From: Spirochaetota bacterium
GTDB taxonomy: Bacteria; Spirochaetota; UBA12135; COTS27
NCBI GenBank assembly: GCA_965249715.1
Contig: CBDFMP010000043.1
Location: forward strand, 2,771 to 66,770
Direction: 5' to 3'
Length of the DNA stretch: 64,000 nucleotides
Shown: positions 5,716-62,272 of the stretch, piece by piece
How the letters are laid out: every line of letters starts with the position of its first letter
Position numbering within the stretch: the stretch's first letter is position 1
Position numbers and translations under genes: made by a program
The notes under the pieces: generated by a model
The model's input: the letters and a program-made list of their open reading frames with translations, nothing else
The model's database searches: none
Told to the model about the DNA's origin: nothing

Positions 5716-6949
5716 CTCCCTTTTAGATCAAGCTTTTGCAGCTTAGCTCCCTCCAGTGTGGCAGTTTTTATATTTTTTGCTAACTTAAAATTGATGGTCC
5801 CTGTAAGTCAGCTTCTGTAAGATTCAGCGCCTTGCAGGTCGGTCTGCTTATCAAACTGAGCGCCTTGCAACACTTCGCAGCACCTAACCCTTAGGTCAAG
5901 CCCTTGCAGCTGAGCTCTCTCCAGTGTGGCAGTTTTTATATTTTTTGCTAACTTAAACCCGATAGCCTTTTGTAAATCAGCACTTGTAAGGTCAGCGCCT
6001 TGCAAGTCGGTATCCTTATCAAACTCAGCACCTTGCAGGTTAGCATCTTTTAAAATAACACCTTGCAGCTTAGCTTTTTTTAATGACGCTCCCTCAAGGT
6101 TAGCTCCTGTTAAGTCAAAGCCAGTATTGCTTAAATCAACTTCAGCTAAGTTAAAATTTCTAAGGTTAGCAACATCATTATTTTAGTAATTAGATCACCC
6201 CCGTTAAATATCGTTTTTATTTCTTCCTTATACATACCTTGTCTCTGTAATCGTACAAGTTGAGTAAAAGCAACTGTCCTTTCCTTAAAGTTTTCTTTAT
6301 TAAAAAACGATTTCTTAGCATCAGAGAAAAGTCCCAAATTAATCTGCTCCTGTGTCTTTTGTAATCTGTTCCCGCGTGTCAAGCGTCCTAAAAATCAATC
6401 TGCCCATCCAACACCGGCAATGCTATGAGCACCCCGATTCAATCGCTTGAACCACCACAGCCCCAAAATCTTTACCAGTGCTTAGCCCACAAGTAGCAGC
6501 CCTAAAATAATTGCTATCGCACATTTGTATTATCATGCTATCGGGAAACACCCGCAAATACACTTGTAAGAATCAGCTGCATACCCCCAATCCTATCCCG
6601 AATAACCTCAACAACCTTAAACGCCACCTTTTCGAAATCCACTCTTTTGCTTTGCGTCAACCCCTTCTACTGCCATATTTACTGCCTTTAGTTGTTGCAT
6701 ATCATCATCTCTCCTAAATATAACGCGTCAAGCTTTTCCATCTGTTTGACGGTGTACGCTAAAACCCTAATGGTATTTGTCACATGCTGGATTTCAGTTT
6801 TCGTGATAACCCTATTTTTGCGCGCGAGGATCCTTGGATAATCAATCTTTAATAACTCAAGGTATGTCATCCGACTAGCTTGAGATCTGTCAAGAGACCA
6901 ATTCTTACTCATTTTTTAAGGCAACTATATACATTAGCGGACTTAATTC

Positions 6950-17096: not shown

Positions 17097-17357
17097 TTAA
17101 CCGCCGCCCGTCAACCGCCAAGTCTTTAACAGAAAGTGCTGCTGCTTGTTTGATAGCAGCCGCCACTCGCGCACTGCTACGGGAAGCAATAGCTGCTGTC
17201 TGCTGCCGCGCGTATAATCCTCAGCCGCTATTGGTTCACTCAGTGGAAGTGCCCATAACATGGGGGGCAGCAGGCAGCCCCAGGCTATCCATACAAACAA
17301 TGGCATTAAAAAACGCGAACAGCGCCGTAACATAAAAAACAAAAAATACAATAACAT
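17097..17357 (-). pseudogene. Decoy copy of the 854-aa gene 5' end (86-aa ORF)
   Basis: The first 65 aa are nearly identical to the 14440..17004 N-terminus. The ORF then reads into an inverted-frame cca fragment. Confidence 0.85.
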
Positions 17358-17490
17358 AAATAATAATCCCTATCAGTTTGCCAAACCTTAACGCGAGCGC
17401 TGCAAAAAAGCCTCAGCCGCGCGCACTAGCTGTACGCGCGTATTCAAAGCAAACGTCTTCATTAACAGCCGCCCGTCAACCGCCAAGTCT

Positions 17491-17658
17491 TTAACATGAA
17501 GTGCTGCTGCCGCACGTATAATCCTCAGCCGCTATTGGTTCCAGTGGAAGTGCCCATAACATGGGCGGCAGCAGGCAGCCCCAGGCTATCCCTGCAAACA
17601 ATGGCATTAAAGAACGCGAACAGCGCCGTAACATAAAAAACAAAAAATACAATAACAT
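17491..17658 (-). pseudogene. Second decoy copy of the 854-aa gene 5' end (55-aa ORF, below the track cutoff)
   Basis: My translation: MLLYFLFFMLRRCSRSLMPLFAGIAWGCLLPPMLWALPLEPIAAEDYTCGSSTSC*. Confidence 0.8.
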
Positions 17659-17688
17659 AAATGATAATCCCTATCAGTTTGCCAAACC

Positions 17689-19119
17689 TTAACGCGAGCG
17701 CTGCAAAAAAGCCCCAGCCGCGCGCACTAGCTGTACGCGCGTATTTAAAGCAGGAGTTTCCAAAACCATTTCCAACAAATGCCGCAACAGCTTGCCAATG
17801 AGCGGCGAAGGTTCAAGCTTAAACGTCTTTATTAACAGCCGCCCGTCAACCGCCAAGTCTTTAACATGAAGTGCCGCTGCTTGTTCGATGGCAGCCGCCA
17901 CACGCGCCTCAAACCGCAATAGTTCCGTTTCTTCACGTTGCAAAGTACGCGTAACCGCCAAGTGCGATGTCATCCCGCGGCCTTTCCTGTCCGCACGCAC
18001 CAATGCCAATAATAACGAAACATTGGCAAGCCCCACACGGCGCAGCCAGCGGCGTATAGTTGCGTCATTCCAGTTGTCTGTGCTGTAAAGCATATGTTCA
18101 CGTACCAAACGTGTCACACGCGCACTCAGCTTGCTTGCAAAGCGCAAGCGCCGAAGAATTTGCGCCGTCTGCTCAGCCCCTTTAACGTCATGTTGAAAAA
18201 ATGTAGCCTGTCCAGTTTCTGGCAAAACTTTGCGTGTTTGCGGCTTCGCCACATCGTGAAAGAGCGCAGCCAGCGGCAGTTCCAGCGCCTGCCGCAACTC
18301 GTGCTCCGCTGCCAGCTTATGTTGATAATCCGTGACAGCAGCCAACACAGCCAGCGTGTGTTCGTACACATCATAGGCATGAAAGGCATTTTGTGACACA
18401 CCCTGCAGTGTCGTTAGTTCCGGGAGAAATTCCTGTAAAAGACCGCTAACATTAAGGGCGCGCATGCCTGCAACAGCATTCTGCCCGCTAAGCAATTTAC
18501 TCAGCTCATCACGAATGCGCTCTACGGCTATGCGCTTCAACTGCCCGGCCATCGCCTGCATCGCCTGCAAACAAGCTGTTGTCAGTGTAGCATCCAACTG
18601 TGCCACAAAACGACAAGCACGCATCATCCTGAGCGCATCTTCTGTAAACCGTTCTTGGGCATTGCCAATAGTGCGAATACACCGAGCTTGCAGATCTGCA
18701 CGTCCGTTAAAAGCATCGAGCACTTCCTTAGTTTCAGGGTGATAGGCAAAAGCATTAATGGTAAAATCGCGCCGCTTCAGATCTTCAATAAGCCGCCGCG
18801 TAAAAAAAACCTCACTTGGTCTGCGTGCGTCGTGATAAGTCCCCTCTGTGCGATACGTTGTGACCTCATAAGCATCGCCATCCACTAAGAGGGTTAACGT
18901 ACCGTGTGCAATGCCCGTAGGCAGCGCAGCCGGGAACAGCTGCTTCAGCTCCTGAGGCGTGGCACTGGTGGCAAAGTCAATATCACCACCGCGGCGTCCC
19001 AAAAGCTGATCGCGCACAAAGCCGCCCACAACGTACAGCTCATACCCTGCCGCAGCCACCCTGTGGTATAACCGCATGGCACTGGCTTGCAGAGCTATGG
19101 GAAACTTAAATGCTTCCAC
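17689..19119 (-). CDS. cca: CCA-adding tRNA nucleotidyltransferase with HD domain
   Basis: 476 aa with the Pol-beta-type motif GGFVRDQLLGRRGGDIDFAT, RRDFTINA, and an HD region (LFHDVAKP). Confidence 0.85.
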   Translation of the reverse strand: MEAFKFPIALQASAMRLYHRVAAAGYELYVVGGFVRDQLLGRRGGDIDFATSATPQELKQLFPAALPTGIAHGTLTLLVDGDAYEVTTYRTEGTYHDARRPSEVFFTRRLIEDLKRRDFTINAFAYHPETKEVLDAFNGRADLQARCIRTIGNAQERFTEDALRMMRACRFVAQLDATLTTACLQAMQAMAGQLKRIAVERIRDELSKLLSGQNAVAGMRALNVSGLLQEFLPELTTLQGVSQNAFHAYDVYEHTLAVLAAVTDYQHKLAAEHELRQALELPLAALFHDVAKPQTRKVLPETGQATFFQHDVKGAEQTAQILRRLRFASKLSARVTRLVREHMLYSTDNWNDATIRRWLRRVGLANVSLLLALVRADRKGRGMTSHLAVTRTLQREETELLRFEARVAAAIEQAAALHVKDLAVDGRLLIKTFKLEPSPLIGKLLRHLLEMVLETPALNTRVQLVRAAGAFLQRSR

Positions 19120-19212: not shown

Positions 19213-21597
19213 TCACCTTATTCTGTCAAAACGCAGGGATGCCGCTTTATAAAAAATGTAGCGTTTAAGCGCTTTTTTATCGCCAACCGGATCAATTTTT
19301 AAGGATACCATCATCTTATTGTAAAACAGCTCCATATTATCCGGCACAAAGGCATTAACATCAAAACGTTCTGCTAAGGAGGCAATGCGTCTATCAAGAT
19401 TCTCGCGCAGAGTCACACGCGCCTCGCCAATTTTAATATTCCACAAATCATGTTCTTGTTCCAGTTTACGTTTTAATTTAGCAAGATCGCCCAGTTCAGG
19501 GACATTTTTAATAAACAGCTGTTTCTCCTGTTTCCTATCGACGGCACCTTTTTTTGCAGTAGCTGCGGCTGCAGTCACTGCACGCTTGGACTGTTCAGAA
19601 TGTTTGTTAGGGGCTGTTATGCTGCCCGCTGAGCCTTGTGCGCCTTGTACGCTCACTTTTTTCTTGTTATCCAATGTGGGTAATTTATAATAACGCCGCG
19701 CCAGAAACGCCAAATATCCACGATTGCCCTCAAAAAACAGCATCATAGTTGAAAAGAATTCACTAATATTCAAGAAGAAGCGCCGAACAACTCCCATATG
19801 GCTGCTTTTAATTGCCGTGCGCCGCACCACCTGAAATGACAGATCAATAATTTCATGCGCTTGCCGCTGTTTAGCAGTTTTTTCATTGATGACCAGCTCC
19901 ACAAATTTTTCTAAGACCTGCTTTTTTTTATCAAGATCCGCCGCACGATAAAGCAAATCCTGTGTATTCGGCACAATAAAAAGTTTGTCTTTTTCTGAAA
20001 AAAACAATCGCTGGATAAGATACACATAGTCCAAGTTCGAACTCTTGACGGGCGAAGCTTCGAGAACTCTAATCACTAATTGTAAATAATTCTTAAAAAA
20101 AGCACTGATGTATTGAGTTTCCAACTGGTTGATAAACTCCTCCTCCGCATCACGCGAGATAATTTTCGCGGCATCTTGTTTCCAATCCTCAATTATTGCC
20201 AGCTCAACTGTCTCACGCTCATCAGCCAAAACTGAAAGAAAAGAAGTGATCAACCGCACACGATGACAATAGTATTTTACATTGCCTGAAGAAAAAACAA
20301 GAATATTCTCAATAGGCTGTCCTGTGTAGTTTTTCTTTCTGATGAGCTCACGCAACGAGGTATCAGAATAAAGTTCCAAGAGTTTAGCGTCCTTGCTGCC
20401 TGCTTCGCTTGTGAAAACCTGTGTATCCAGCTGCAAAATATTTGAAATGCTAAGCGGAACATAGACCTTGCGCCCGCGTTTCTCTACAAACGTGCTCACC
20501 AACCCTAAGGTAATTGAATTATAATGTTCCTCAACAGTGTCATCACTACGCCTCCTCTCAACCAGTAAATTGCGTTCATTAATGGAAATACGTGAAAGAA
20601 AATATGAAATAAAACACAAATTATAAATTTCTTTATTCTGAAAATTCTGCTGGCTAATCTTAAGCATCACACTCAGCATGATGTTGTAAATTAATTGTAC
20701 AAAAAAAAGAAAGTACGCATCGTCAATAATACCCTCTCTCACAATACGCGACAAACGCTGTGTGTCCAACTTTTGTTCGCGCACTCGCTTAAAAACATGA
20801 TGGCGAATATCTTCGTTCATATCGTCTGTATAGTAGCTGTTAAGAAATTTGATAAACACCTCTATTAGCTGTTTAAGCTTATTCGTAGGCATCAGGACAT
20901 TTTTTACATAATCATTGCCGGAAAAAAGCGTTAACGGACGTTTGGCAACGGATAATTCTACCAATTGTTTAAGCGTCAACTGATTAGTATCCACAGTTTG
21001 CAGCAAGGCATCAAATTGTGCTTCAGAAATGGCCAGCTTTGTTAATGCCTCCTCCTTAGAGAGTAAAGCAGCTGTCCTATCTAAAAACTGACTGTAACTT
21101 TTTTCAAAATTATCCTCAATATAGAGATATAACTGCTCAAGTTCACTGCGTTTCTCTTGCAGGCGAATTTGCGCAGGGTTGCCTTGCTCATCGTGCTCCA
21201 ATACTTCAATAATACCGTAGCCATCCTTGAGCACCATCTTAATAAGGTTGTAAACAGGTGTGAGAAAACTCTGTTTTTGGAAGGCCTTGATGTCCTCTTT
21301 CCCGGCAAGAAAAAATACAAAATTATTAAGCTCAATTAAAGAATCATTATATTGCGGTGCAGCACTATATTGACAAAGCTTCTCAAAAGCTGTTGTCATT
21401 TCTGCCGTAAAATTAAATTCTTTTACAAGCGCCTGCCGCAGTTCTTTATTATACGGATACGCATATTCCGGCAATGAATAAGTAATGCCCTCATTCTCCG
21501 CTTGAACATTACCGCTTGCCTGTTCATTAGCTTGCTCAGGCAAGACACGCTCAGCCTGCTCGCCTTTTTCTGACGAAAGCTCTTCCACTTCAGCCAT
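19213..21597 (-). CDS. Large hypothetical cytoplasmic protein
   Basis: 794-aa uninterrupted ORF with an acidic N-terminus and a Lys-rich segment near aa 640-680. No domain I can name. Confidence 0.55.
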   Translation of the reverse strand: MAEVEELSSEKGEQAERVLPEQANEQASGNVQAENEGITYSLPEYAYPYNKELRQALVKEFNFTAEMTTAFEKLCQYSAAPQYNDSLIELNNFVFFLAGKEDIKAFQKQSFLTPVYNLIKMVLKDGYGIIEVLEHDEQGNPAQIRLQEKRSELEQLYLYIEDNFEKSYSQFLDRTAALLSKEEALTKLAISEAQFDALLQTVDTNQLTLKQLVELSVAKRPLTLFSGNDYVKNVLMPTNKLKQLIEVFIKFLNSYYTDDMNEDIRHHVFKRVREQKLDTQRLSRIVREGIIDDAYFLFFVQLIYNIMLSVMLKISQQNFQNKEIYNLCFISYFLSRISINERNLLVERRRSDDTVEEHYNSITLGLVSTFVEKRGRKVYVPLSISNILQLDTQVFTSEAGSKDAKLLELYSDTSLRELIRKKNYTGQPIENILVFSSGNVKYYCHRVRLITSFLSVLADERETVELAIIEDWKQDAAKIISRDAEEEFINQLETQYISAFFKNYLQLVIRVLEASPVKSSNLDYVYLIQRLFFSEKDKLFIVPNTQDLLYRAADLDKKKQVLEKFVELVINEKTAKQRQAHEIIDLSFQVVRRTAIKSSHMGVVRRFFLNISEFFSTMMLFFEGNRGYLAFLARRYYKLPTLDNKKKVSVQGAQGSAGSITAPNKHSEQSKRAVTAAAATAKKGAVDRKQEKQLFIKNVPELGDLAKLKRKLEQEHDLWNIKIGEARVTLRENLDRRIASLAERFDVNAFVPDNMELFYNKMMVSLKIDPVGDKKALKRYIFYKAASLRFDRIR

Positions 21598-21785: not shown

Positions 21786-21858
21786 CGGAGCATAGCGCAG
21801 TTGGTAGCGCGCTTGGTTTGGGACCAAGAGGTCACAGGTTCAAATCCTGTTGCTCCGA
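21786..21858 (+). tRNA. tRNA-Pro (anticodon UGG)
   Basis: Hand-folded 73-nt cloverleaf. Acceptor cggagca/tgctccg, D arm gcgc-agttggta-gcgc, anticodon arm cttgg-ttTGGga-ccaag, variable aggtc, T arm acagg-ttcaaat-cctgt, discriminator a. No encoded CCA. Confidence 0.9.
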
Positions 21859-21966: not shown

Positions 21967-24228
21967 ATGGGTACCACTACCTTAGATACTATCAATACAC
22001 TTACCTTAGCGCTGGCTGCTGGAATTTTAAGTATTATTGTTGCACGGCGTCTCCAGCTGGTCCCTATTGTCTTACTTCTGGTCACTGGCGTGGTCATTGG
22101 TCCGGAGGGGCTAGGATGGCTGCATCCTAAAAAGCTCGGCGAAACCCTGGAAATTCTCCTGCAAGTAGGAATTGCCATCATCCTTTTTGAAGGCGCCCTC
22201 ACCCTCAACTACAACGAATATAAAAAAGCCGGTAATATCATCTTCAACCTGCTCTCCTTCGGCATCCTGCTCACCTGGCTGTTAAACGCTTTCGCCATCG
22301 TTCTATTTTTTCAGTTTCCGCTTCGTTACGCACTGTTTCTGAGCAGTATCATTGTTGTGACCGGGCCAACCGTTATTATGCCGCTACTCCGCCGCATGAA
22401 TCTTAACCACAATCTCACCCATATTTTGCATTGGGAAGGAATTCTTATCGATCCCATTGGCGTCTTTCTGGCGATCTTTTGTTTTGAGCTGCTCATTAGC
22501 GGCGGCGAAGGTGTTGTGATTGTCAAGCTGTTCACGCGTTTGGGTATTGGCATTATCGTTGGCGCGCTCTTTGGTATGCTGGGCGCTACCGCACTCAATC
22601 GCCGCTGGATTCCGCAAGAACTGCACAATAGCTTCATTCTCATGTGGGCACTGTTAACGTTTGCCAGCTGCAATATCATCCTTTCCGAATCAGGTCTGCT
22701 TGCAGTGGTGGTTGCAGGCATTGTCTTGGGTTATTACAAAAAGGTGTCATTGGAAGAAATTAAAAAATTCAAACTTGATCTGACTGAGATCTTTACTGCC
22801 ATTATCTTCATCCTGCTGTCCGCTGACCTCAGCTTCACCAACATCAAACGTGTCCTTCCGCAGGGCATTTTTTTGATCTGTTTCATCCTGTTTGTCACAC
22901 GTCCGCTCAGTATCTTTATCTGTTCGCTTGGCAGCAAACTCAGCATACGCGATAAACTCTTTCTTTCCTGGGTAGCGCCACGCGGCATCATCGCTGCTTC
23001 CATGGTCACATTATTCTCCTATTCGCTCAATTCTGAAACTGAGCTTGCCCCCGCCATTGCCAAAGAGCTTTATTTTATGGAAACCTTTGTCTTTGCTGTT
23101 ATTGCTGTTACCGTTGTTTTCCAAGGTACGACTGCGCCCTTTGTTGCCAAAGCTCTTGGTGTCAAACGCGATCTGGCGCGCAATTGGGTCATTGTTGGAG
23201 CACACGAACTCAGTGCTACCATTGCAGAATATCTCATGTCCATGGGCAAGGAGGTCATTCTCTTAGACAGCAATAAAACCAAGCTTAATATTTATGCTCA
23301 ACGCGGCATTGTCACCGAACACGGCAATAGTCTTGCCTACGATATTTTCGATCGTGAAAATTTTATCCACACAGGACGTGTTCTTGCCATCACCGATAAC
23401 ATGGAACTCAACGTATTGATCTGCCAGCATTGGAAGAAAGTGGTGCGCCCGGACGGACTTTACAACTGGAGTGGGCCAGCAACAGCCACAGCCAACATCA
23501 ATACCATAGCCTCCACCGCCGTGTGGCAACAGCTAGCCAAACCCAGTATCCTCGAAAGTCAGCTCAGCAACCAAGAACGCTCACTGCTCATCAAGGCACC
23601 GGCAGAACTCAATGCACAGGAGCGCGAGCATGCAGTACCGCTCTTGGCCATCCCCACAAACGGTGATGTGCTGTTTTCACCCGATTTAAACAATAAAACC
23701 CTTGCCCCGCTGCTGACAAACAAATGGCTGCTGCTGGTCAAAGTTAGTTTTTCATTGCAAAGCTTTATCAAAGCCGGTTATCTTGCCGTCCTCAATACTG
23801 CCCCACTCACAAGTGAAATTGTTTATCGGCACGTTTTAACACAAGTTAAAACACCGCTCGGGCTCACCGCAAAGACCAGTCGCGATGACATCCTCCAGCA
23901 TTTACAGGAGCAAGAACAAGTTAAAAGTGTTTGCATAGGCAATCAAGTCGCCATTTTTCCAACATTGCAAAAGGCCTTTACAGAGCCGCTTGTAACCGTA
24001 ATCACCACACGCAGCGGTGTGGACATGCACGCATATGATAAAAAACCTATCCGTATCTGGTTCTTTATTTTTGCACACAATGCCGATTCGCTGCGTTATC
24101 TCTCATTAATTTCTCATATTTCTAAAATTGTGACCGATGAATCAACAAGAAACAAATTGCTTGCTGCTGATACCACCGTTATGCTGGAACAAGCATTATT
24201 TCAAGCATTGGCGCAAAAAAATATTTGA
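21967..24228 (+). CDS. CPA1-family Na+/H+ (cation/proton) antiporter with C-terminal regulatory domains
   Basis: 753 aa with about 12 TM helices in the N-terminal two thirds. These are followed by a TrkA-N/KTN-like segment (WVIVGAHELSATIAEYLMSMGKEVILLDSN) and a PTS-EIIA-2-like tail. The last 227 bp lie in the first 371-bp repeat unit. Confidence 0.8.
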   Translation: MGTTTLDTINTLTLALAAGILSIIVARRLQLVPIVLLLVTGVVIGPEGLGWLHPKKLGETLEILLQVGIAIILFEGALTLNYNEYKKAGNIIFNLLSFGILLTWLLNAFAIVLFFQFPLRYALFLSSIIVVTGPTVIMPLLRRMNLNHNLTHILHWEGILIDPIGVFLAIFCFELLISGGEGVVIVKLFTRLGIGIIVGALFGMLGATALNRRWIPQELHNSFILMWALLTFASCNIILSESGLLAVVVAGIVLGYYKKVSLEEIKKFKLDLTEIFTAIIFILLSADLSFTNIKRVLPQGIFLICFILFVTRPLSIFICSLGSKLSIRDKLFLSWVAPRGIIAASMVTLFSYSLNSETELAPAIAKELYFMETFVFAVIAVTVVFQGTTAPFVAKALGVKRDLARNWVIVGAHELSATIAEYLMSMGKEVILLDSNKTKLNIYAQRGIVTEHGNSLAYDIFDRENFIHTGRVLAITDNMELNVLICQHWKKVVRPDGLYNWSGPATATANINTIASTAVWQQLAKPSILESQLSNQERSLLIKAPAELNAQEREHAVPLLAIPTNGDVLFSPDLNNKTLAPLLTNKWLLLVKVSFSLQSFIKAGYLAVLNTAPLTSEIVYRHVLTQVKTPLGLTAKTSRDDILQHLQEQEQVKSVCIGNQVAIFPTLQKAFTEPLVTVITTRSGVDMHAYDKKPIRIWFFIFAHNADSLRYLSLISHISKIVTDESTRNKLLAADTTVMLEQALFQALAQKNI

Positions 24229-24246
24229 CCCCAAATAACAAAACTT

Positions 24247-24480
24247 GTGATAATCCTGAAAAGTTTACCTGAGCTCGCAAAAATGTGTATTGCCGGTCGG
24301 ATGGCGGCTGAATTACTGGTTTATTTGGGAGAACATGTCAAAGCGGGCATCGCCACTATGGATTTGGAAGTCTCACCACACGCAGCGGTGTGGACATGCA
24401 CGCATATGCTAAAAAACCTATCCGTAGCGGATTTTTTATTTTTACACACAATGCCGCTTCATTGCGTTAGCTCTCACTAA
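24247..24480 (+). pseudogene. Chimeric decoy ORF: first 42 codons of map fused out of frame to an antiporter-tail copy
   Basis: 77 aa reading MIILKSLPELAKMCIAGRMAAELLVYLGEHVKAGIATMDLEV, then unrelated sequence. Confidence 0.85.
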
Positions 24481-24617
24481 TTTCTCATATTTCTAAAATC
24501 GTGACCGATGAATTAACAAGAAACAAATTGCTTGCTGCTGATAGCACTGTTATGCTGGAACAAACATTATTTCAGACATTGGCGCAAAAAAATATTTGAC
24601 CCCAAATAACAAAACTT

Positions 24618-24851
24618 GTGATAATCCTGAAAAGTTCACCTGAGCTCGCTAAAATGCGTATTGCCGGTCGGATGGCGGCTGAATTACTGGTTTATTGGGG
24701 AGAACATGTCAAAGCGGGCATCGCCACTATGGATTTGGAAGTCTCACCACACGCAGCGGTGTGGACATGCACGCATACGCTAAAAAACCTATCCGTATCT
24801 GGTTCTTTATTTTTGCACACAATGCCGCTTCATTGCGTTAGCTCTCACTAA
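24618..24851 (+). pseudogene. Second chimeric decoy ORF (map 5' fragment)
   Basis: 77 aa with the same architecture as 24247..24480, offset by 371 bp. Confidence 0.85.
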
Positions 24852-24988
24852 TTTCTCATATTTCTAAAATCGTGACCGATGAATTAACAAGAAACAAATT
24901 GCTTGCTGCTGATAGCACTGTTATGCTGGAACAAACATTATTTCAGACATTGGCGCAAAAAAATATTTGACCCCAAATAACAAAACTT

Positions 24989-25741
24989 GTGATAATCCTG
25001 AAAAGTTCACCTGAGCTCGCTAAAATGCGTATTGCCGGTCGGATGGCGGCTGAATTGCTGGTTTATTTGGGAGAACATGTCAAAGCGGGCATCGCTACTA
25101 TGGATTTGGAAGTCCTCAGCCGCGCGTGGATTCACAAACACAAAGTGCGCTCGGCTACGCTGAATTATAAAGGCTTCCCCGCCACCATCTGCACTTCCGT
25201 TAACAACGTCGTTTGCCATGGCATCCCCAGTCATACTGCCATTTTAAATAAAGGCGATATTATTAACATTGACGTCACATTGATTGTCAACGGTTACCAT
25301 GGCGACGTTTCACGCACCTTTATCATTCCGCCCGCCCCACCGCACGTTCACGCGCTGGTCACGCGTACCGAACAGGCGCTCATGCACGGCATTAATGCCA
25401 TTACAGCCGGCAAATCGATTAACGTTATTGGCACTGCCATTGAAAAATTTATTAAACCGTTTCACTATGGCATTGTCAGTGCCCTCTGCGGGCATGGCAT
25501 TGGCGAAGCCTTTCACGAAGATCCTTTTGTCATGCACATTAAACAGCGCCGCAAGGGCGCACGGCTGCTCCCGGGGATGACCTTTACTGTGGAACCGATG
25601 ATCAATGCCGGCTCCGCGCAAGTTTATACTTCGGCTGAAGATGGTTGGAGTGTCTTCACACGCGATGACATGTTGTCTGCACAGTTTGAACATACCATTG
25701 CTGTGCTTGAGCAAGGTTGTGAAATTTTAACCGCAAGCTAA
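24989..25741 (+). CDS. map: Methionine aminopeptidase, type I
   Basis: 250 aa with a GTG start. The N-terminus aligns with the E. coli MAP N-terminus. Metal-ligand blocks are present: CHGIP, NIDVT, GYHGD, GHGIG..FHE, FTVEPM, QFEHT. Confidence 0.95.
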   Translation: MIILKSSPELAKMRIAGRMAAELLVYLGEHVKAGIATMDLEVLSRAWIHKHKVRSATLNYKGFPATICTSVNNVVCHGIPSHTAILNKGDIINIDVTLIVNGYHGDVSRTFIIPPAPPHVHALVTRTEQALMHGINAITAGKSINVIGTAIEKFIKPFHYGIVSALCGHGIGEAFHEDPFVMHIKQRRKGARLLPGMTFTVEPMINAGSAQVYTSAEDGWSVFTRDDMLSAQFEHTIAVLEQGCEILTAS

Positions 25742-60514: not shown

Positions 60515-62050
<1,536 letters not shown>

Positions 62051-62272
62051 TTGATTTTTAGTTTTTTCTGTGTCGGCAGTAACAGGAACATCCTGCACAC
62101 ACCTTATAAAATAAGGTACATACAAGCTGAACATTACTACTGCCAGCGCAAAGAAATTTCAAACGGTTATGTCTCGTCTTCCCTTACTTGCAAAGATCCA
62201 CACATTGCAACCAGACCAGCAAAAGAACTCCTAAAAGCTCCTCGCCGACACAGCAGGCAATGTGTAACGTAT

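Follow-up and report, generated by a model that had tools for sequence, protein, structure and literature searches.

A three-unit 371-bp tandem array spanning the antiporter–map junction of a marine spirochaete, one of about 190 long-period arrays in its genome

Short-junction, RecA-independent tandem duplications of E. coli and Salmonella, as described by Roth, Lovett and colleagues, arise with little or no microhomology and expand in register by unequal exchange. Laboratory examples usually measure from kilobases up to hundreds of kilobases; they are unstable and disappear unless selected for. Ehrlichia ruminantium carries long-period tandem repeats together with duplicated or truncated gene fragments. 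Its long-period repeats inflate intergenic distances and break short-read assemblies, and active copy-number change is their hallmark (PMC10710844, PMC7343930). Here, we describe an array of three 371-bp units in a 64,000-nucleotide stretch of spirochaete DNA (the window), which covers positions 2,771 to 66,770 of contig CBDFMP010000043.1 (C43:2771-66770) in assembly GCA_965249715.1. The array crosses the boundary between a Na+/H+ antiporter gene and map, the methionine aminopeptidase gene. The assembly (G000) is an 85% complete metagenome bin of 2.42 Mb in 49 contigs, from an uncultured marine spirochaete that shares its GTDB genus with COTS27, the crown-of-thorns starfish's subcuticular spirochaete. 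COTS27 (G001; a single contig of 2,684,921 bp) was the closest relative used and served as the outgroup, and a genome of the same family (G002) provided a second comparison for the antiporter/map junction. With a probability of about 0.82, we read the array as a selectively tolerated tandem segmental duplication, i.e. slowly decaying debris and not a device.

Using Tandem Repeats Finder, one array was detected at 24002-25114, with a period of 371, 3.0 copies, 95% matches, 0% indels and a score of 2051. Direct comparison of unit 1 (24002-24372), unit 2 (24373-24743) and unit 3 (24744-25114), all read on the forward strand, gave 22 substitutions between units 1 and 2, 19 between units 1 and 3 and 9 between units 2 and 3, with 0 indels; 25 sites vary across the three units. 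An initial annotation of this DNA had proposed three equal units with the breakpoint GAAGTC/TCACCAC, divergence by substitution only in strict phase, and manual counts of about 19 differences between units 1 and 3 and about 9 between units 2 and 3. The units and breakpoint proved exact to the base, the counts equal the computed values, and no indel occurs over 3.0 × 371 bp. The repeat is not extended by the bases beyond the array (A versus C on the left, C versus T on the right), and microhomology at the unit junction is 0 bp. A search of the whole 2.42-Mb assembly matched the 371-bp unit only to its three tandem copies. Chance cannot yield 3 × 371 bp at 94-98% identity.

The duplicated segment comprises the last 75 codons of an EIIA-like domain, the stop codon, an 18-bp spacer and codons 1-42 of map. 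The antiporter gene (21967-24228, forward strand) is intact in the open reading frame (ORF) list and encodes a 753-aa CPA1-type Na+/H+ antiporter with Pfam matches to Na_H_Exchanger (5.6e-45), TrkA_N (5e-07) and, at the C-terminus, PTS_EIIA_2 (4.1e-14). Its final 227 bp lie inside unit 1, and its tail aligns with the COTS27 orthologue without gaps. The map gene (24989-25741, forward strand) is an intact methionine aminopeptidase gene of 250 aa with a GTG start and a match to Peptidase_M24 (4.2e-43); its N-terminus aligns from residue 1 with both comparison genomes, and orthologues were found in 41/41 relatives. Neither the antiporter nor map is broken by the duplication, because the first copy keeps the whole upstream gene and the last copy the whole downstream gene, as holds for any tandem duplication that runs from within one gene into its neighbour. 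Unit 1 holds the functional antiporter tail (TGA 24226-24228), the 18-bp spacer and decaying map codons 1-42 (S7L, R14C). Unit 2 holds a dead antiporter tail (in-frame TAG 24468-24470), the spacer and decaying map codons 1-42 (L27W), while unit 3 combines a dead tail (TAG 24839-24841) and the spacer with map codons 1-42 in functional form. The antiporter and map share one reading frame; as 371 mod 3 = 2, each junction shifts the map part relative to the antiporter-tail frame. Two chimeric ORFs of 77 aa result on the forward strand, ORF 1 at 24247-24480 and ORF 2 at 24618-24851, each with a GTG start, 42 map codons and 35 out-of-frame antiporter-tail codons. The ORF list agrees here with the initial annotation, which had placed the functional antiporter end (24228) in unit 1, the map start (GTG 24989) in unit 3, and one such chimera in each of units 1 and 2. 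Exact-protein look-ups for map and chimeric ORF 2 returned no copy on record elsewhere, two metagenome pattern scans returned nothing, and a genome-collection scan gave distant map homologues only; these searches turned up the junction and the unit in no other assembly or metagenome contig.

The comparison of orthologous junctions that the initial annotation had suggested shows the unduplicated arrangement. In both COTS27 and the same-family genome, the gene order is antiporter, map and an S26 peptidase gene on the opposite strand, with a single junction and no repeat; the duplication is therefore derived in the lineage of the genome under study. The 25 variable sites were polarized with the COTS27 bases. 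In the antiporter-tail part, unit 1 differs from both units 2 and 3 at 16 sites. At half of these (8/16), unit 1 retains the COTS27 base and the other two units have a derived one in common; the changes include D>A in the conserved AYDKKP motif, D>A and Y>TAG in the conserved HNADSLRYL motif, and A>T. A further 4/16 are private to unit 1, three of them within the poorly conserved last 30 residues, and the remaining 4/16 are uninformative. In the map part, the unit 1 fragment carries R14C, at an arginine invariant in both comparison genomes, plus S7L, and the unit 2 fragment carries L27W. Unit 3 has two private changes in its functional map part, both synonymous. Six sites are private to unit 2, all derived; five of the substitutions are clustered in 18 bp (24427-24444), with one in the other 353 bp, and the cluster is probably one multi-base mutational event. 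Such position-dependent decay matches what a genuine old duplication predicts, and would arise from neither strain mixing nor mis-assembly.

The initial annotation had further noted that units 2 and 3 share most derived states in the antiporter tail, and had proposed a parsimony tree of the units as a check. Once polarized, the derived states common to units 2 and 3 number at least eight, and the rooted tree is therefore ((u2,u3),u1): units 2 and 3 have a common history after their split from unit 1. The proposed scheme of duplication, divergence and second duplication is thereby supported, yet its last step, the duplication of a derived unit, may be only partly right, as unit 2 looks hybrid-like. 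It equals unit 3 at 16/16 sites in positions 37-285 of the unit, but equals unit 1 at positions 35, 314 and 353. The site patterns would also arise from a one-step triplication, or one in quick succession, followed by gene conversion between units 2 and 3 over about 37-285, or from a middle unit made by unequal crossing-over, unit-3-like in its 5' part and unit-1-like in its 3' part, with no clean second duplication. One exchange between positions 286 and 313 accounts for two of the three unit-1-like sites, a hybrid middle unit is what a step from two to three units through unequal homologous exchange predicts, and recA is present. We nevertheless consider such a history unlikely, since its signal lies in three sites only, every site pattern among the three sequences fits ((u2,u3),u1) without homoplasy, and 314 and 353 fall at third codon positions, where the outgroup base is uninformative. 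Three sites are too few to decide between sequential, conversion and hybrid histories.

The reading as a tolerated duplication can be put as a sequence of steps. A homology-free illegitimate event, with slippage during replication, template switching or mis-joined strands as the probable cause, would have duplicated 371 bp, beginning 227 bp ahead of the antiporter stop and ending at map codon 42. The two copies then diverged; the distribution of changes described above shows the outer functional halves under purifying selection and the inner halves decaying. Unequal homologous exchange or slippage between units may have added the third unit in perfect register; conversion homogenizing units 2 and 3 would be an equivalent alternative to this expansion step. 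On this reading, the dead tail copies and both 77-codon chimeras that begin with the map start are pseudogene debris. Divergence of about 5%, together with intact MutS/MutL, is expected to suppress recombinational collapse and may explain why the array persists; recA, mutS and mutL are present and open in this genome.

To assess the unit number, we used read evidence from the only four runs found to contain the sequence, all of one sample and represented as k=31 contigs at a coverage of 2-8x. In the deepest run, X1, contig depth was 8.2 for the left flank, 7.8 for unit-1-specific and 7-9 for unit-2-specific sequence, 13.5 for the stretch common to units 2 and 3, and 14.6 for a 79-bp contig over the novel junction. 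These depths are consistent with three units and two junctions. This read evidence is not independent of the assembly. A 148-bp run contig combining unit-2/3 states at 265-285 with 314A and 325T was considered as an extra allele and set aside, being explained by simplification of the k=31 graph. The depths bear on whether the assembler merely strung together strain variants of a one- or two-copy locus. The genome is an 85%-complete bin in 49 contigs with 14 contig ends falling in arrays, run coverage is low (2-8x), and neither of the two 2x runs yielded the cluster specific to unit 2. However, the novel junction occurs in the independent contigs of the runs at about twice the flank depth, with unit-specific words at 1x and shared words at 2x; single-copy alleles would not decay by position, with a stop only in redundant copies; and the published COTS27 genome, validated by mate pairs and Sanger sequencing, has many long-period arrays too. 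An assembly artefact is accordingly the least likely of the alternatives that we weighed.

Several observations weigh against the reading as tolerated debris. The linkage of 5' and 3' variants in units 2 and 3 rests on the assembly, because the two units are identical over 241 bp (positions 73-313), and the sample behind the runs is probably the source of the assembly itself, so that read support is not independent. Each decoy retains its GTG start, although this is expected by chance at about 5% divergence, and the 18 bp upstream of each start are intact as well. No RNA run containing the sequence was found, and the decoy starts might be expressed. In a pattern scan, each unit also carries one sigma-70-like site (TTGACC-18-TGtGATAAT, 10/12, with an extended -10), at 24225-24254, 24596-24625 and 24967-24996, and a promoter-like match tripled in this way could in principle matter.

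These observations, and the perfectly kept register, would suit an array maintained by selection, in which decoy upstream ORFs or a tripled promoter-like element tune map expression. We find this very unlikely. The -35 of the sigma-70-like site lies across the antiporter stop and the -10 across the GTG start of map; the site is probably fortuitous, and we do not credit it because a transcript from it would lack the conserved map start. Nonsense and radical replacements gather in the inner copies, and a single junction suffices in COTS27 and the same-family genome. The chimeric ORFs appear to be without constraint, because they differ from each other at 7/77 residues and have no family match in Pfam. 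The roughly 190 unrelated loci with the same kind of array in this genome point to a mutational habit and not to a map-specific design. We found no indication of selection on either the decoy ORFs or the tripling, and the decoy ORFs gave no hint of function. As a separate matter, a candidate terminator in unit 2 (ATCCG-TAG-CGGAT plus a T run), made by the five clustered substitutions, was rejected: its hairpin is not in the minimum-energy RNA fold, and the z-score is -0.9.

The initial annotation had treated the array as a one-off with 'decoy' starts, but the genome holds about 190 such arrays, and constraint on the decoy ORFs is not apparent. Scanning the whole assembly, we found 189 arrays whose period is 100 bp or more and which occupy 226.7 kb, or 9.4% of bases; their medians are a period of 281 bp, a copy number of 3 and a match of 94%. 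The map-junction array exemplifies a lineage-wide habit and is, as a single locus, ordinary for this genome. In the window, Tandem Repeats Finder also reports long-period arrays at 5723-6037 (168 bp × 1.9) and 17200-17752 (301 bp × 1.8), the latter overlapping the junction of cca and an outer-membrane-protein gene. Upstream of the antiporter, a tRNA gene (21786-21858) lies between it and a 794-aa ORF without a Pfam match (19213-21597, reverse strand). The window further holds a full-length 16S rRNA gene (60516-62051, reverse strand), whose 5' region we take to be unusually divergent, with GAACGAACGTTAGTGAGATG presumably standing where most bacteria have GAACGAACGCTGGCGGCGTG.

Array placement was scored with a simple ORF map, giving 175 scorable arrays. 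The 22 arrays inside one ORF all have a period divisible by 3, a bias that arrays elsewhere do not show, and out-of-frame arrays are confined to gene ends and intergenic stretches. Arrays bridging two ORFs comprise 31 convergent, 19 co-directional (the map-junction array included) and 1 divergent case, against genome totals of 236 convergent, 1286 co-directional and 235 divergent junctions. Random placement of unit-sized segments expects 55% inside ORFs, 9.9% at co-directional, 0.9% at convergent and 0.9% at divergent junctions, whereas the observed shares are 12.6%, 10.9%, 17.7% and 0.6%, respectively. The class of the map-junction array is therefore found at about chance frequency (10.9% versus 9.9% expected), and arrays at convergent junctions at about 20 times the random expectation (31 versus about 1.6). 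Of the convergent junctions, 88/236 lie no more than 200 bp from an array. Gene ends inside arrays are 144 3' ends versus 34 5' ends. The ratio of 3' to 5' ends is 22:10 in arrays of at least 97% identity versus 122:24 in older arrays (p = 0.08), and this weaker 3' bias in the youngest arrays leans towards a selective filter, though a mutational bias may also be at work.

Genome-wide, illegitimate duplication without homology may come first, with selection then acting as a filter that leaves only in-frame or boundary-spanning duplications, which would expand in register by homologous exchange and become stable as divergence and mismatch repair curb recombination. Beyond this survival filter, we tentatively entertain, as a doubtful addition, a lineage-specific and still-active mutational process in which tandem duplications arise by preference where transcription units end, and of which the map-junction array would be a by-product; it could stem from illegitimate joining linked to supercoiling or gyrase, or from replication-transcription conflict. 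If such a process were true, the genus would be a natural system for the origin of new spacers, terminators and chimeric ORFs. Microhomology in clean arrays is 0-9 bp, no breakpoint motif is common to the 21 clean arrays, and no inverted repeats, hairpin or motif were found at the breakpoints of the map-junction array.

The load of long-period arrays is strongest in the COTS27 genus. In a 400-kb sample of COTS27 we counted 19 arrays (L032-L051); 11 of the 16 scorable ones are wholly intergenic, with shorter units of 100-350 bp. One COTS27 array, of 1842 bp × 5.5, runs past the sampled stretch and may be part of the giant gene of COTS27. Among other relatives, arrays number 1 in 68 kb of the same-family genome, 1 in 200 kb of G003, 0 in 200 kb of G007 and 0 in 160 kb of G005. 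In the COTS27 genome paper, tandem repeats come up only as the reason for 23 gaps in the assembly (PMC7444263), and no published description of the long-period array pattern was found for the COTS27 lineage.

Loss of a repair gene was considered as the cause and rejected, as no tested gene (recA, mutS, mutL, xseA, recJ or recQ) separates repeat-rich from repeat-free genomes. A recJ homologue was found in 0/9 genomes of the order (G000-G008); recQ occurs within the order in G004 and G006 only, and is missing also in the repeat-free G007 and G003. The genes recA, mutS, mutL and xseA are present throughout G000-G008, except for mutL in the fragmented G004. As a side observation, decayed, stop-containing copies of the mutS C-terminus lie at C19:9281-10013, just downstream of the intact mutS (C19:10848-11405). 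These copies form a further gene-tail array, reported by Tandem Repeats Finder at C19:9522-10362.

By itself, the map-junction array matters little. It is a clean case of a duplication with endpoints in two neighbouring genes that leaves both intact, with decay in the redundant halves and continued constraint on those that are needed. What makes it useful is that, within the genome-wide load (9.4% of bases) of a marine spirochaete, it is well resolved and can be dated.

Three classes of repeat were considered for the array and rejected. It is not an in-frame protein-coding tandem repeat, as 371 mod 3 = 2 and the array crosses a stop, a spacer and a start. A mobile or dispersed element, such as a miniature inverted-repeat transposable element (MITE), a repetitive extragenic palindromic (REP) sequence or an insertion sequence (IS) fragment, does not fit a unit found at one locus only, with no inverted repeats at its breakpoints. 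A contingency (phase-variable) locus has units of 1-10 bp, whereas the unit here is 371 bp and its gain or loss leaves both genes intact.

The array resembles, to different degrees, several described systems. In Drosophila populations, partial-gene tandem duplications that create chimeric ORFs likewise join the 5' part of a downstream gene to the 3' part of an upstream gene (PMC4069613, PMC5460883); these eukaryotic chimeras are reportedly in-frame or exon-shuffled and sometimes expressed, whereas the fusion at the map junction is out of frame and decaying. The intergenic variable-number tandem repeat (VNTR) loci of Wolbachia are also long-unit tandem repeats in a host-associated bacterium (PMC3287509). 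However, Wolbachia has just a handful of them, used as typing markers, and is not known to have a genome-wide load or an evident gene-junction origin for these loci.

The duplications of E. coli and Salmonella are similar in that the genes cut by the endpoints survive whole at the two margins, and each additional copy brings one chimeric junction. Unlike them, the unit at the map junction is 371 bp and old, with 2.4-6% divergence between units. Ehrlichia ruminantium offers the closest parallel in several respects: its repeats are head-to-tail, each unit being some 100 to several hundred bp long (371 bp here; genome median 281 bp), occupy several percent of a small host-associated chromosome (9.4% in the spirochaete), and lie mostly outside intact coding sequence with truncated gene copies (22/175 inside one ORF); in both organisms they also lengthen intergenic distances and interrupt short-read assemblies. 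The spirochaete shares three of the four features of the Ehrlichia ruminantium type; the fourth is copy number that varies among strains or passages, and here the sequence comes from four runs of a single sample. The two organisms differ in phylum and in GC content (47% in the spirochaete versus about 28%), and the spirochaete units are demonstrably pieces of flanking genes, concentrated at 3' ends and convergent junctions. As a second, phylogenetically independent genome of the Ehrlichia ruminantium kind, it could help to tell apart the roles of mutational bias and selective filtering in how intergenic DNA arises.

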